64,000 nucleotides of DNA, from positions 32,001-96,000 of IMG/VR virus record IMGVR_UViG_3300031993_000033; one strand, 5' to 3'. The notes beneath the pieces are model-generated. The model had not been told where the DNA came from and made no database searches. It saw only the letters and a list, made by a program, of their open reading frames with translations. The number at the start of each line of letters is the position of its first letter. The stretch's first letter is position 1. Both the position numbers and the translations under genes were made by a program. Source of the DNA: a virus. Its lineage: Duplodnaviria; Caudoviricetes. Below are positions 3,272 through 44,634 of the stretch, piece by piece.

Positions 3272-3745
3272 TTAATCAAATAATATCTCATACATCACGC
3301 TGTCGTGATACTTGCCACCGAAATAATTACAGTCGTGCATATACCCTACAATTCCGCCACCGTAACGTTTTATCAGTCTCTCGTATATTTTATTTGCATG
3401 ATCGTTGTCTGCCACAGCCCACCACTCAGCTCTATGCAGTCCTTCGGAAATGAGCTTGTCAATGTGGCGTATGCAGTCCACCATGAGTGCTCCGCCTTTG
3501 CCAGTAAATGATATGAGTCCAAACTGACTAAGAGACCTTGCAACCTCGTTATAATGATACGAGAAATAACCATCCACTTCTCCATTTTTATCCAGATGAA
3601 CGAAGTCTCTGCGCCAATCGGTGTTGTCTGGCACTGTAAACTCCCGATAATCGCCGAGAAAATAGTAATCATATTCTGGCTTATACCAACAACCGATCAG
3701 CTTGCGTTTTAGTTCCTCTTTATATAACTGCGCTGGGTAAAGCAT
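3272..3745 (-). CDS. putative GNAT-family acetyltransferase
   Basis: LHRAEW..VADN..ANKIY..GG..G....GKYHD...YEI resembles the RimJ/RimL GNAT C-terminal pattern. Confidence 0.55.
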   Translation of the reverse strand: MLYPAQLYKEELKRKLIGCWYKPEYDYYFLGDYREFTVPDNTDWRRDFVHLDKNGEVDGYFSYHYNEVARSLSQFGLISFTGKGGALMVDCIRHIDKLISEGLHRAEWWAVADNDHANKIYERLIKRYGGGIVGYMHDCNYFGGKYHDSVMYEILFD

Positions 3746-11562: not shown

Positions 11563-11740
11563 GGAGGCGTGATTATGTATTGCACATTTAATGGAAAAAT
11601 CTGCTTAATGATGTGGGATATACAAGCGGAAAAATACGTTTATATTCCTGAGTCAGTGTGGTATAGCTTTACAGAAAAAGCAAGATCACGCTATACAGAA
11701 GAACGCACAAATTAAATGATTATAATATATCGGAAAGTTG

Positions 11741-11769
11741 TTGACAAAGTAACAAATGTGTGGTATACT
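11741..11769 (+). promoter_or_regulatory. sigma-A-type promoter
   Basis: TTGACA-N17-TATACT, extended -10. Confidence 0.75.
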
Positions 11770-13057: not shown

Positions 13058-13312
13058 ATGAAATACTATGAAATTGAATTTGCTCATAGAGCAGAAATTG
13101 AGGATGAGAGCTTTATCGGTACACCCGATAGATATAGTATCTGTATCTTAGCGGAAAGAGAGCCTTCATATGAAGAAGCGGAAATTTTCTGCAAAGAGGA
13201 TATGAACAATTTAGGTTATGACATGGTAAGTGATGTGTTGGAAATTAGCAAGGAAGAAGCCTACAATTTCTTTGATATGGAAAATGCAGACAACTTTCCG
13301 ATATTCAAGTAA
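13058..13312 (+). CDS. acidic hypothetical protein
   Basis: AAGGAGG SD; D/E-rich. Confidence 0.7.
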   Translation: MKYYEIEFAHRAEIEDESFIGTPDRYSICILAEREPSYEEAEIFCKEDMNNLGYDMVSDVLEISKEEAYNFFDMENADNFPIFK

Positions 13313-33019: not shown

Positions 33020-33844
33020 ATGGAGTTTAAAGTTGGAGACAGAGTGCGTTATGTAGTTCAAAGAGACATTGATAATGTCGAAGTTGGTGAAGTAGGCATT
33101 ATTCGTGGCATTTCTTCAGGTGGTGATTATGCAGTTGATTTTGAAGAAAGTGGTTATAAACATAGCTGCGGTGGTCTTTGCCAAAATAATCATGGTTGGT
33201 GGTGTAGGGGAGATACGCTTGAACCAGTAGCTATTAGATCCGTGTTATTCCCGAATGTGGAGTATGTGTTTAATGAAAAACAAGCCGAAGAATATGCAGA
33301 GAGATTAAATAAAGAGTTAGCAGAACATTTTAACGCATTTTCAAACGACGGTATATCGGCAAAAAATGGAGGTAAAAATTCAATGAAATTTACATTTTAT
33401 GTAACAGAAGGAACGAGAGTGGATAAGAGTTGCAACGGCACTATCCCGACAATGACAACAAATATTGAGTTGCTTAGTGGCAATGTTTTTGATAAGGTCA
33501 CTACCGTTAAGGGTTCTGCAACTTGTGATAAGGCAGATTATGATGAAAGACAGGGTGTTCTTGAAGCTCTTGCGAATGCAATTTGTGGAGGTAATTTTTA
33601 CAAAGCATACGCCGAAGCTGTCAAATTGAATAGATGTGAAGATGAATTATCACGCACTTGTATCTACTGTGGCAAGGTTCTTAATACAGTAGAAGAAAAA
33701 CAGGAACACGAAGCATGGCACGTTGAGCGTCGTAAGGCAAGACACGAGCGTTATCTTCTCCGCAAGAGAGCTAAAGAAATTGCCTTTGAAGAAGCAGCTC
33801 AGAAGCTTGCAAAAGAGATAATCGCAGAGGATAACAAGAAGTGA
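33020..33844 (+). CDS. hypothetical protein (SH3-like N-terminus; possible second start at 33383)
   Basis: FKVGDRVR..G.VG...V.F pattern; internal GGAGG + ATG. Confidence 0.7.
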   Translation: MEFKVGDRVRYVVQRDIDNVEVGEVGIIRGISSGGDYAVDFEESGYKHSCGGLCQNNHGWWCRGDTLEPVAIRSVLFPNVEYVFNEKQAEEYAERLNKELAEHFNAFSNDGISAKNGGKNSMKFTFYVTEGTRVDKSCNGTIPTMTTNIELLSGNVFDKVTTVKGSATCDKADYDERQGVLEALANAICGGNFYKAYAEAVKLNRCEDELSRTCIYCGKVLNTVEEKQEHEAWHVERRKARHERYLLRKRAKEIAFEEAAQKLAKEIIAEDNKK

Positions 33845-34149
33845 TAGTCTTAATATTTTCAATTCTCGGCAGCGTATTCAGCTTGGGCGGTAATGTACTT
33901 ATCGCCCATAAGAAACGCTCTGGCTGGTGGATATGGATATTAGGGAACATAGCGTGGTTGGGAGTAAACTTTCTCGGCACTATGAATATTCCTATGGTAG
34001 TAATGTATATATTCTATCTTATCACAAATATTGCAGGGTATATTGAATGGGGTAGGAAGTCCGATCTACACAAAGCCATTGATGAATGCAACGAGAAATT
34101 AAAGAATAAACCTAAGTTTGACTTTTCTGATGTAAAGACAAGACATTAA
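33841..34149 (+). CDS. PnuC-like small membrane protein
   Basis: Three TM segments, GW.IW..GN..W pattern, G...W at the end. Confidence 0.55.
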   Translation: MIVLIFSILGSVFSLGGNVLIAHKKRSGWWIWILGNIAWLGVNFLGTMNIPMVVMYIFYLITNIAGYIEWGRKSDLHKAIDECNEKLKNKPKFDFSDVKTRH

Positions 34150-34358
34150 AGTTTGATTTTATTCGACTTGTAAGGCGTTATCTCAATGCTTAAATCGTCT
34201 GCCACCTTGTATTTATACAGCTTGTGAAGTTCACCATCGGCTGTAAATCCGCAGACGAAGTGGTTTTCAAGCCAATACTTGCCTTCCTCTATCAGCAGAG
34301 GATAACCTAAATCGCTCCACATTTGAATCATCTCTTTGAAGATGGGTTGCATTATCAT
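34146..34358 (-). CDS. 5' part (SD plus 70 codons) of the PAPS-reductase-like gene, currently inverted
   Basis: Lone - strand ORF with AAAGGAG SD in a + operon; inversion at the flanking repeats fuses it in frame to 34418-35485. Confidence 0.8.
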   Translation of the reverse strand: MIMQPIFKEMIQMWSDLGYPLLIEEGKYWLENHFVCGFTADGELHKLYKYKVADDLSIEITPYKSNKIKL

Positions 34359-34418
34359 TCTCCTTTCACTGGGAAATGCCTATTCTACGTTGCTAAATTG
34401 GCAATAAAATCAAACTTT
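34148..34418. other. invertible DNA segment bounded by perfect 16-bp inverted repeats
   Basis: AAAGTTTGATTTTATT (34148-34163) / AATAAAATCAAACTTT (34403-34418). Confidence 0.8.
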
Positions 34419-34492
34419 CGCAACAATTTGAGACTTGGCAGCAGACCATAGCAAGGCTCAGTGGGGAACTTGATGACAGAATTGCAGACTCA

Positions 34493-35485
34493 ATGAGCGT
34501 TATCAACAAGGCGATACAGGACTATCCGAATCACAAGAAAGTAGTATTTACATCTACAGGTAAAGACAGCATGGTAACTCTTGATTTGGTAACTCGTGTT
34601 TTACCTGATGTGGGTGTTCACTTCAATAACACTACTCTTGATACAGGCGATACCTATAAAATGGTAAAAGCTCATAAAGACTGGACAATTATCAATCCCG
34701 ACATTGGGTTCTACAAATACATCTTCAAAGAGCATTTCATTCCCACAAGATTCAGCCGTGGTTGCTGTACAGTATTCAAGGAAGGTAAGAGCATAGAATA
34801 CTTTGATAGTGAACCACAGATGCTTTTCTTTATGGGCGTGAGAAATGACGAATCAGCGCAGAGAGCAGACCGACAGGATATATCGCACAATCCAAAGTGG
34901 GGAGATCGTGATTGGTTTAGTTGCTTGCCTATAAGAAAGTGGAGTGAGCTTGACATATGGCTCTATATTCTTAAAAACGGCATTGAAATAAATCCTAAAT
35001 ACCGTAAGGGATATAGTAGAGTTGGGTGTTCAGTGGCTTGCCCGTATTACACCAAGTACACTTGGGTATTAGATAAGTATTGGTATCGCATGGCGTATGA
35101 CCGATGGCGCAGCATCCTGCGCAAAGTCTTTGCGCAGGAGAATCGCTGGACTAAGCTGAATTGCACTATAGACGAATATGTAAACGGAGCTTGGAATGGT
35201 GGTTTACTTAGACCAGAACCAACAGAAGAAGTTGTGACAGAGTTTATGGAGCACAAAGGACTTGACAACTATGATACGGCTTTGCAATACTTCAACAAGA
35301 CTTGCGAAGTGTGCGGTAGGAACGTAAGACAGAATGATGTGCTTGCAATGAATCTGAAACTTCTCGGCAGAGGAACAAGCAAGATTTACTGCAAGAAGCA
35401 TCTGAAAGAACTTTGTTGCTTAGATAATGAGGCATGGGATAATGCAGTAGCAGACTTTAAGAGGCAAGGCTGTGCTTTGTTTTAA
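34493..35485 (+). CDS. PAPS-reductase family protein (3' part), C-terminal Zn finger
   Basis: STGKDS PP-loop, RGCC..FK, GVR.DES..R, PIRKWS..DIW.YI, Y.KGYSRVGC..CP; no SD at 34493. Confidence 0.85.
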   Translation: MSVINKAIQDYPNHKKVVFTSTGKDSMVTLDLVTRVLPDVGVHFNNTTLDTGDTYKMVKAHKDWTIINPDIGFYKYIFKEHFIPTRFSRGCCTVFKEGKSIEYFDSEPQMLFFMGVRNDESAQRADRQDISHNPKWGDRDWFSCLPIRKWSELDIWLYILKNGIEINPKYRKGYSRVGCSVACPYYTKYTWVLDKYWYRMAYDRWRSILRKVFAQENRWTKLNCTIDEYVNGAWNGGLLRPEPTEEVVTEFMEHKGLDNYDTALQYFNKTCEVCGRNVRQNDVLAMNLKLLGRGTSKIYCKKHLKELCCLDNEAWDNAVADFKRQGCALF

Positions 35486-35553
35486 ATTTACAAGACAACA
35501 AATTAGCGGTAATGATTAACCAAATAAAAGTTGAGTTTTAAGGAGGAATAATA

Positions 35554-36690
35554 GTGAGTATTAAAGGCTACAAAGTGTTCAACCCTGACTGGACTTGCAG
35601 AGGTTTTCAGTACGAGGTTGGCAAAACTTTCAAGCACGATGGCAATATTGAGATGTGTGGTGCAGGATTTCACTTCTGCCGGAAGGTCTCAGATTGCTTC
35701 AATTATTACGGCTTTAACAGCAACAATAAGGTTGCAGAAGTCGAAGCTATCGGTAATGTTGAGACTAAAGGCGATAAATCCGTCACAGATGAAATCGTAA
35801 TTTTAAGGGAGCTTACTTGGCACGAGGTTCTTGATTTAGCCAATACAGGAAAGGACTGTACGGGCAATCGCAACAGCGGTAATCGCAACAGCGGTAATTG
35901 CAACAGCGGTAATCGCAACAGCGGTGATTACAACAGCGGTAATTGCAACAGCGGTAATCGCAACAGCGGTGATTACAACAGCGGTAATTGCAACAGCGGT
36001 GATTACAACAGCGGTGATTACAACAGCGGTAATTGCAACAGCGGTAATCGCAACAGCGGTGATTACAACAGCGGTAATTGCAACAGCGGTAATTGCAACA
36101 GCGGTGATTACAACAGCGGTAATTGCAACAGCGGTAATTGCAACAGCGGTGATTACAACAGCGGTGATTACAACAGCGGTAATCGCAACAGCGGTGATTA
36201 CAACAGCGGTAATTGCAACAGCGGTGATTACAACAGCGGTGATTACAACAGCGGTAATTGGAACAGCGGCAATCGCAACAGCGGTGATTACAACAGCGGT
36301 AATTGCAACAGCGGCAATTGGAACAGCGGTGATTGGAACAGCGGTGATTTCTCTACTGGCTTTTTTAATTCAATTGAGCAACCGTTATGCGCTTTCAACA
36401 AGCCATTAGATATTGACAGAAATGCTTTTAATAGCAACTTAGCTGTAAGAGCTATGGATTGGAAGTATGAGAACGACTGGTGGATTTACAGTGAGAATAT
36501 GACGGCGGAAGAAAAAGAAGCACATCCTGAACACGAAACAACTGGCGGTTATCTCAAATCGGTTGATTTCAAAACAGCTTGTGGTATTATGTGGGATAAT
36601 ATGACAGAAGATGAAAGAGTTGCAGTCAAGGATATTCCTAATTTTGATGCAAGTGTGTTTGAAGAAATTACTGGCATCAAGGTTGTTTGA
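35554..36690 (+). CDS. pentapeptide-repeat protein
   Basis: KGYKVF..DWTCRGFQY..GFHFC domain followed by 32 G(N/D)xNS repeats. Confidence 0.85.
   Translation: MSIKGYKVFNPDWTCRGFQYEVGKTFKHDGNIEMCGAGFHFCRKVSDCFNYYGFNSNNKVAEVEAIGNVETKGDKSVTDEIVILRELTWHEVLDLANTGKDCTGNRNSGNRNSGNCNSGNRNSGDYNSGNCNSGNRNSGDYNSGNCNSGDYNSGDYNSGNCNSGNRNSGDYNSGNCNSGNCNSGDYNSGNCNSGNCNSGDYNSGDYNSGNRNSGDYNSGNCNSGDYNSGDYNSGNWNSGNRNSGDYNSGNCNSGNWNSGDWNSGDFSTGFFNSIEQPLCAFNKPLDIDRNAFNSNLAVRAMDWKYENDWWIYSENMTAEEKEAHPEHETTGGYLKSVDFKTACGIMWDNMTEDERVAVKDIPNFDASVFEEITGIKVV
35863..36342 (+). repeat. 15-bp coding tandem repeat, 32 units
   Basis: GG(T/C)(A/G)AT(CGC/TGC/TAC/TGG)AACAGC units. Confidence 0.95.
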
Positions 36691-38796: not shown

Positions 38797-38883
38797 ATTT
38801 GCCTATTCTACGTAGGTCAAAACTGAATAAAACGGTTCTTTTATGTGATTGCAAAATAATAAATTAGTGATAAGGAGAGAAAA

Positions 38884-44579: not shown

Positions 44580-44634
44580 CAGCCCGTTTTTGGCTATTTT
44601 ACGTAGGGGTAAATAAAAGGAGATGGTGTAATAT

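Follow-up and report, generated by a model that had tools for sequence, protein, structure and literature searches.

Why should one short open reading frame (ORF) of a phage run against all of its neighbors, directly ahead of an enzyme gene that has no ribosome-binding signal of its own? The question is raised by positions 34146-35485 of a 64,000-nucleotide (nt) stretch of viral DNA, referred to here as the window, which is taken from a complete genome of 104,704 bp (bases 32001-96000) that bears direct terminal repeats (IMG/VR record IMGVR_UViG_3300031993_000033; Duplodnaviria, Caudoviricetes). The genes around this locus all lie on the + strand, and the enzyme gene sits amid DNA methyltransferase genes. 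The answer is probably a recurrently flipping DNA switch, a partial intragenic inverton controlling an accessory PP-loop enzyme of a rumen phage. We favor this reading because a rare and perfect repeat flanks the segment, flipping it restores an ORF, homologues run across the restored junction, both orientations are found in relatives, and recurrence, selection, and convergence all point the same way. The genome or its close relatives are present in cattle and goat gut runs, and a megablast search against the GenBank phage collection gave no match.

The repeat arms (left arm AAAGTTTGATTTTATT) are complementary at 16 of 16 positions and are separated by 239 nt, which bears out the perfect 16-bp repeat reported in the preliminary description of this DNA. 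It is the only perfect inverted repeat of at least 16 bp within 2 kb in the window, where a first-order Markov simulation expects 0.017, and just 1 of 60 simulations had any (Table 1). Between the arms lies the sole − strand ORF among the + strand neighbors, with its own Shine-Dalgarno (SD) sequence, as first described. This ORF (34146-34358, 70 amino acids, or aa) consists of the 68 codons of an N-terminal domain (N-domain) plus an upstream ATG and a stop codon, which arises from the palindromic TTAA bordering the repeat on its outer side. On the opposite strand, the frame of the enzyme body is open back to a stop at 34394-34396, with no start codon ahead of 34493, and the ATG at 34493 indeed lacks an SD. 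When positions 34148-34418 are flipped in silico, a single 425-aa ORF is rebuilt, in which PYKSNKIKL is joined to SQQFETWQQ. The single frame is thus as originally proposed, with a correction to its start: of the two candidate ATGs on the − strand (34358 and 34352), the second is probably the real one, because of its 7-nt SD spacing and because homologues begin MQPIF, and the protein would then have 423 aa. Judged from the sequence, the fused state has a 423/425-aa ORF preceded by an SD, and the inverted state has a 330-aa ORF without one plus a detached 68-aa ORF.

Homologues confirm the join. A search with the enzyme body found 882 relatives, most of them 410-432 aa long, and the 70-aa piece searched among longer proteins led to the same proteins of about 423 aa, which carry it fused in frame at their N-terminus. 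Whether homologues would align across the junction had been set beforehand as a check. One of them, P0001, is 95-96% identical to both pieces and continuous across the predicted junction (...PYKPNKIKLSQQFETWQQTIARLSGELDDR...); for this protein, as for P0002, P0121, and P0122, gene arrangement was inferred from the protein sequence alone. At the DNA level, the N-domain lies upstream of the body and on the same strand in all of the 49 related viral loci with the gene start in view except two (L001, the closest relative of the window, and L035). These comparisons show that the fused gene is the real gene. Shorter homologues (303-394 aa) were considered as natural forms without the N-domain, and rejected: the copies whose DNA was examined carry a frameshift, an inversion, or a deletion.

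Both orientations occur among close relatives. Nine contigs (L052-L060) came up when the repeat pair was sought in either orientation, and all of them keep repeats of 15-16 bp spaced by exactly 239 nt. With respect to the enzyme body, the window and L052 (L001 is this same contig) have the segment inverted; it is fused in L053-L060, of which L054-L060 are seven metagenome contigs; L053, the IMG/VR record L002, and L058 from the metagenome collection are one contig. Four sequencing runs were also compared, with orientation scored on assembled Logan contigs, which drop minor variants. Among the contigs from independent studies, two of run X19 join 34148-34248 (−) straight to 34419 onward (+), which is the fused junction, and the strand-changing joints fall at 34148/34419 and 34164/34403. 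Loose contig ends in run X3 also give the fused junction. Run X2, which comes from another study, yields one 41.8-kb contig, about 93% identical to the window and colinear with it across the region, hence inverted, and the independent Logan assembly of X1, the probable source run, reproduces the window arrangement exactly. The segment may also flip within one population.

The inversion also seems to have arisen at least twice. The window and L052 belong to one clade (A), whereas the interrupted forms P0121 and P0122 carry residues of the other, mostly fused clade B (P20, M/V63), and P0121 runs on into the antisense of an L054-type left flank unrelated to that of the window. Within the inner 239-bp segment, the inverted L052 and the fused L056 are identical, and 10 positions set the window apart from both. 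P0121 is at the center of a 90% cluster that contains 20 distinct stand-alone N-domain ORFs, found on JGI, ENA, and Logan contigs of up to 107 kb. The listed members and their representative are intact to NKIKL or a one-residue variant of it, except for P0131 and P0133, which stop a few codons earlier. Beyond NKIKL these ORFs diverge into at least eight different tails. In the 90% cluster of P0001, there are both 423-aa and 330-aa calls, each recurring on several contigs.

Both pieces of the gene also show purifying selection in inverted genomes. The two inverted genomes are separated by a synonymous divergence (dS) of 0.20, and the ratio of non-synonymous to synonymous rates (dN/dS) between them is 0.11 in the N-domain (6.5 synonymous vs 3.5 non-synonymous changes; P ≤ 0.004 against neutrality) and 0.05 in the rest of the gene (37 vs 9; P ~1e-18). 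These values match those between fused genomes. This is not what is expected of a gene dead since the inversion was fixed in their ancestor. Either the inversions are recent and independent, or flipping is frequent enough for selection to act on an intact gene.

The strongest argument for a contingency gene, rather than an accidental inversion, is that the same gene is switched by other means in other lineages. In L038, which is 49% identical, the C-terminal 66 codons are inverted between 14-bp repeats (L038:3852-4070), and flipping them gives 429 aa with the conserved C-terminus. In L035 (45% identical), an internal piece is inverted between 11-bp repeats (L035:2835-3015), and the flip gives 432 aa; the same genome also carries an intact paralogue, L041. 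Two further clades have a poly-G tract of G6-G9 in the R-G-G codons of the N-domain (~2905-2914), which is in frame only at G8. Of 14 loci, four are in frame (L040, L043, L045, and L048) and ten are not (G7 in L042, L044, and L026; G9 in L034, L021, L028, L037, L046, and L047; G6 in L039), with the reservation that some of these length calls could be sequencing error. Truncated database proteins start at this very spot. The tract is thus an in-ORF homopolymer whose length varies and shifts the frame, as in a simple-sequence contingency locus. The claim that intragenic inversion phase-varies this gene is therefore supported by both orientations with intact repeats, by two or more origins, by purifying selection, and by the poly-G tracts and other inversions elsewhere. 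Two other features were seen in these lineages. In one clade, the body is split between two frames near residue 110 in eight of eight loci (L040 and L042-L048, at ~3300-3345), so that the split looks like a conserved feature rather than an error of sequencing. Seven loci (L028, L037, L039, and L045-L048) carry an extra copy of body residues 50-109 about 1 kb upstream (~1953-2132).

Table 1. Features of the invertible locus and the candidate recombinase (window coordinates unless stated otherwise).
Feature	Position	Strand	Basis or remark
Full palindromic junction site TTAAA-GTTTGA-TTTTA	34146..34161	.	Pattern match; outer boundary of the proposed switch
Left arm of perfect 16-bp inverted repeat	34148..34163	.	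Repeat scan
Inner invertible segment, 239 bp	34164..34402	.	Inverted (gene-split) orientation in the window
N-terminal domain, 68 codons (MQPIF...NKIKL)	34149..34352	-	94-96% identity to N-termini of 423-aa homologues
Shine-Dalgarno sequence AAAGGAG, 7 nt ahead of ATG at 34352	34360..34366	-	Sequence reading
Promoter-like motif ACGTAGAATAGGC (contains TAGAAT), carried on invertible segment	34378..34390	-	Promoter function inferred only
Right repeat arm	34403..34418	.	Encodes NKIKL in the fused form, inside a flexible protein linker
Codons SQQFETW...ADS, helix after linker	34419..34492	+	Without start codon in window orientation
Remaining 330-aa ORF, PP-loop / PAPS-reductase-fold body with conserved Cys pairs	34493..35485	+	PF01507, phrog_424, Foldseek; no SD ahead
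Tyrosine recombinase	G000:C1:22744-23271 (outside window; gene at ~22.7-23.9 kb of G000); L061:1420-2598	- (in L061)	Beside family-2 glycosyltransferase gene

How could such a segment flip? The arms resemble a site found throughout the window. The pattern TDAAA-N6-TTTHA occurs 36 times against 3.6 expected, an enrichment of about 10-fold that 0 of 100 shuffles reached, and most of the 36 sites sit after a stop codon and before an SD (e.g., at 35525, 37175, 38828, and 42471). The pattern leaves positions 0 and 17 free; they hold A in 28 and T in 23 of the 36 sites, respectively, which extends the palindrome. Both repeat arms had been taken for core sites of this kind. The left arm does overlap a full site, which itself overlaps the TAA stop of the upstream PnuC-like ORF, but the right arm is only a partial copy with a complementary spacer (TTAAA/GTTTGA/TTTTA on the left, TAAAA/TCAAAC/TTT on the right). 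The same geometry is seen in L038 and L035, and all three inversions combine one arm overlapping a full site with a partner arm that is a partial copy and has the same spacer. Tyrosine recombinases use core sites of two inverted arms around a 6-8-bp spacer that is identical in both partners, and the short inverted arms around a matching 6-bp spacer seen here have this geometry. Homology among close relatives ends exactly at the outer edge of the left arm: the inner segments share at least 94% identity, but the sequences upstream of them are of at least six unrelated kinds. Compared with a reversed-pattern control, sites are numerous in several related genomes (31 against 4 in G001, 15 against 2 in G004, 49 against 12 in G021, 56 against 15 in G022, 12 against 0 in G026, and 45 against 23 in G003). 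G005 and all the poly-G clades show no enrichment; the enrichment is lineage-specific.

No match to a serine recombinase, large serine recombinase, or Piv-type enzyme was found in the complete 104.7-kb genome. The one site-specific recombinase that it encodes is a tyrosine recombinase, Xer-like and built of two domains, the N-terminal one SAM-like, and is located outside the window about 43 kb from the switch, in agreement with the initial remark that no invertase is adjacent. It scores far under equivalog cut-offs and has faint matches to FimB/E-type invertase models (E ~7e-4). Its orthologues in relatives align from residue 46, and its true start is probably downstream of the first ATG (~350 aa). 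Homologues are present in most site-rich genomes (89% identity in G001, 47% in G026, 45% in G028, 31% in G021, and 33% in G022) and in 0 of 11 poly-G-clade genomes. PF00589 matches occur in all of the first five relatives and are thus not discriminating. We hypothesize that this recombinase drives the flip, although a host enzyme is also possible.

A model of the switch can then be proposed. The invertible cassette would carry a promoter-like element, an SD, a start codon, and the N-terminal domain. Its outer repeat would be an intergenic palindromic site placed right after the upstream stop codon, and its inner repeat a copy of the spacer and inner arm of that site, lodged in the flexible linker that connects N-domain and catalytic body. 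One of the two orientations would give the 423-aa enzyme. In the orientation captured in the window, the enzyme would be off, because the start signals are detached from the body and reading of the N-domain leads away from it. The most likely reaction would be a conservative site-specific recombination that exchanges strands within the 6-bp spacer common to both arms (GTTTGA/TCAAAC), catalyzed by a tyrosine-type enzyme, either the single Xer-like one of the phage or one of the host. The purpose may be bet-hedging: a function in DNA modification or anti-defence would pay off in some hosts and be costly in others.

What, then, is being switched? The body matches PF01507 (PAPS_reduct) at 4e-26, with 92.4 bits against a gathering cut-off of 22.5, its PP-loop reads TSTGKDS, and phrog_424 is matched at 1e-32. 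From these matches, it is a member of the PAPS-reductase / PP-loop ATP-pyrophosphatase superfamily. CysH, the assimilatory PAPS/APS reductase proper, was considered and rejected because the scores fall under the NCBIfam equivalog cut-offs (PRK02090, 59.7 bits vs 154; TIGR00434, 50.9 vs 165; TIGR02057, 39.1 vs 254). An AlphaFold2 (AF2) model of P0001 built with 61 homologues has a mean predicted local distance difference test score (pLDDT) of 89.5. In it, residues 1-60 form a compact helix plus four-stranded sheet (pLDDT 92-97), and residues 61-72 a linker (pLDDT 64) that is followed by helices and the PP-loop core. The NKIKL of the repeat arm corresponds to residues 64-68, inside this linker, which is hypervariable among homologues and would be, in the predicted structure, a permissive place for a recombination site. 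Foldseek on the full-length model matched only the PP-loop core (6vpu, 3.6e-9; 7lhs, 6.7e-9), and the solved relatives are only CysH, APS reductase, the PAPS domain of FAD synthase, and TtuA, over about 210 residues. Six cysteines are invariant (C184, C185, C272, C276, C393, and C420) and two nearly so (C364 and C367); the invariant ones suggest a metal or Fe-S site. When folded alone (pLDDT 79), the N-domain gives weak matches to Ugi (Z 4.9) and to several PUA domains (Z 3.3-4.0). These are too weak for a fold to be assigned, and a PUA-like, nucleic-acid-binding role is a lead only.

DndC, SspD, and BrxP are presented as PAPS-reductase-fold enzymes of DNA phosphorothioation (PMC12914056). The phage enzyme shares with them the PP-loop PAPS-reductase fold and conserved cysteines. 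It matches no DndC-type model, and the domains at both of its ends, N- and C-terminal, are peculiar to this phage family. A functional analogy to DndC is possible. Phage PAPS reductases have been placed in variable genome regions considered to be anti-defence hotspots, as predicted DndC/SspD homologues, and Dnd evasion by one of them is cited (PMC13551039). By this analogy, and from its position among DNA methyltransferase genes, a role in DNA modification or anti-defence is plausible for the enzyme described here.

Several observations weigh against the proposed switch and its machinery. Each of the four runs gave one orientation only. A tree built from the concatenated inner segment and body, for the loci represented by DNA, groups the two inverted genomes (support 90/93) and makes the fused L056 their sister (100/100). 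The tree alone thus allows a single event, and recurrence is argued from protein-level evidence and from the contexts of the flanks, a signal that might be blurred by recombination at the mosaic left boundary. No return from the inverted to the fused state was seen directly. As to the enzyme, no DndC model is among the 14 NCBIfam families matched at E ≤ 0.01. The sites raise difficulties of their own: their conserved arms are only 5-6 bp long, which is short for recombinase binding, and the genome of L035 is enriched only 2-fold. Recombinase orthologues that are 61-65% identical occur in genomes with little or almost no site enrichment, and a close homologue is missing from the 77%-complete record of G004, a site-rich genome that bears an inversion. 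An orthologue search in 40 genomes gave a suggestive association between recombinase and sites, but phylogeny confounds it. The suggestion that junction sites recombine when their spacers match has thus held up in part: all three inversions have an arm on such a site, but the link to a recombinase is subject to this confounding.

The main alternative is that these inversions recur without being programmed. Repeats of 11-16 bp would recombine by replication template switching or short-homology recombination, with no dedicated recombinase and no meaningful switching rate, and the results would persist because loss of an accessory gene is often favored. This would account for the three different repeat sequences and lengths (16, 14, and 11 bp) in three lineages, for the single orientation of the contigs in each run, and for the fact that no recombinase is tied to the sites. 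The gene is also lost outright in some relatives: a deletion starts at the PP-loop motif and ends just short of the following pentapeptide-repeat gene (L060:13200-13330), repetitive DNA in place of residues 230-272 brings in a premature stop (L059:6509-6713), or the gene is frameshifted (L004). This indicates that loss is tolerated or favored. However, gene decay does not fit with the strong purifying selection on both pieces between the two inverted genomes, nor with repeats that stay perfect in both orientations across 4-10% sequence divergence. Chance repeats would not be expected to have, in three cases out of three, one arm on the same rare type of palindromic site (3.6 expected per 64 kb), and neither RecT, ERF, nor RecA is detectable in the phage genome. 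Parallel poly-G tracts point to selection for reversible switching rather than for loss. We thus consider unprogrammed inversion unlikely.

Another possibility is that the locus switches between isoforms, the inverted state producing a stand-alone 68-aa N-domain and a 330-aa truncated enzyme with altered targeting. The segment does have its own SD and a −10-like motif, a stop immediately after the repeat gives a clean 68/70-aa ORF in the window and L052, and the body is constrained in the inverted pair (dN/dS 0.05). Yet the contexts that follow NKIKL, of which there are at least eight, range from an immediate stop to 57-74 junk residues, so no inverted-state product is conserved. The ATG at 34493 has no SD, and all the short calls among the loci examined are damaged or inverted copies, none being a natural homologue without the N-domain. 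In addition, W27 of the N-domain and E73, W75, T78, and R81 of the helix right after the linker are invariant in 61 full-length homologues. An isoform switch is accordingly very improbable. Finally, an assembly or amplification artefact, which could be imagined for a metagenomic genome since amplified viromes can contain inverted chimeras, is scarcely credible: the 16-bp repeat is below assembler k-mer length, the check for misassembly found the identical arrangement in the independent X1 assembly, in the 93%-identical X2 contig from a different study, and in the IMG/VR contig L001/L052, and the signature ORFs are on dozens of JGI, ENA, and Logan contigs.

A programmed switch in an enzyme gene remains the preferred reading, and it can be compared to known systems. 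In the E. coli fimS (FimB/FimE) and Clostridioides difficile RecV switches, tyrosine recombinases act on short repeats, and one recombinase can serve several distant switches. As in those, a segment of a few hundred bp that carries expression signals flips between short inverted repeats; here, however, one arm is inside coding sequence, the carrier is a virus, and the recombinase is only a candidate. The Mu G (Gin), P1 C (Cin), and e14 P (Pin) segments have an adjacent serine invertase, 26-bp sites, and an enhancer, and they swap tail-fibre C-termini, which changes host range. The locus resembles them in being a phage-borne inversion that alters the protein made and diversifies the progeny, but the genome has no serine recombinase and it is an enzyme gene that is switched on or off. 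In bacterial phasevarions, hsdS shufflons, and simple-sequence contingency loci, modification functions are made heterogeneous by inversion or homopolymer slippage. The poly-G tracts of the sister clades (G6-G9, in frame at G8) are classic contingency tracts of this sort, although the gene concerned is phage-encoded and specifies a PP-loop / PAPS-reductase-fold enzyme, not a methyltransferase or specificity subunit. Programmed heterogeneity is well known in bacteria defending themselves against phages, and on the phage side it mostly concerns tail fibres.

The closest described system is the bacterial intragenic or partial inverton. Such invertons, both intragenic and partial intergenic, have been described, with an 11-bp repeat for thiC (Chanin et al., bioRxiv 10.1101/2023.03.11.532203; PhaVa). 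They share with our locus short repeats, at least one arm in coding sequence, a flip that truncates or restores an ORF, and an invertase that is neither adjacent nor identified. They differ in being on bacterial chromosomes ("phage" appears three times in that study, always as the susceptibility of bacteria to phage), whereas the present one is in a 104.7-kb phage genome. Here, moreover, the cassette includes expression signals and a whole protein domain, the repeat comes from a genome-wide family of palindromic sites, and sister lineages switch the gene otherwise. The literature that we searched yielded no description of a phage enzyme gene with such a switch. What is new is thus the phage carrier, the accessory-enzyme target, the movement of expression signals together with a whole domain, arms shaped like a 10-fold-enriched palindromic site, and poly-G switching in sister lineages.

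Some features of the surroundings deserve mention. In the PnuC nicotinamide-mononucleotide transporter profile, only the final third (positions 113-174 of 175) is matched by the upstream ORF (33841-34149, 102 aa), which is missing or replaced in most relatives and is probably a gene remnant. Downstream, the gene at 35554-36690 encodes a DUF7666 domain and then pentapeptide repeats from about 32 tandem 15-nt units of high nucleotide identity, whose copy number may vary. A scan for sigma-70 promoters and terminators around the switch gave nothing exceeding chance. The promoter-like motif has seven copies with at most two mismatches in the window. Two leftward (− strand) copies of the form ACGTAnAATAGSC lie in the rightward gene array beside methyltransferase genes (38801-38813 and 44592-44604), the first of them 14 nt from a junction site, with the same spacing as in the switch. 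No convincing inverted-repeat partner bounds either of these two copies. A second perfect inverted repeat in the window, of 15 bp (ATATCGGAAAGTTGT, 11727-11741 / 13290-13304), is near-significant and encloses about 1.5 kb with four + strand ORFs.

The palindromic sites themselves may have a wider use. Mosaic boundaries between phages fall exactly at them. It is conceivable, and we say so tentatively, that spacer-coded sites of the form A-TRAAA-N6-TTTYA-T, placed genome-wide at gene junctions, are used by the Xer-like recombinase for the exchange of cassettes between phages and for gene switching at copies with matching spacers. If this is true, lytic-type phage genomes would contain a system akin to integrons or shufflons, and the inverton would be direct evidence of site recombination. 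The switch is in any case a natural test of whether these abundant junction sites are recombination sites.

An accessory enzyme gene, from a family suspected of DNA modification or of countering defences, thus appears to be a contingency gene in these phages. This calls for caution in virome surveys, where such "auxiliary metabolic" cysH calls are often split, switched genes. The switch also offers a handle on function: phages locked on and locked off could be compared for what the enzyme does and for the defences that it meets. The convergence of inversion, poly-G slippage, and, in a few lineages, outright loss suggests that selection on this function fluctuates. Such selection fits with a modification that protects against some host defences while exposing the phage to others.

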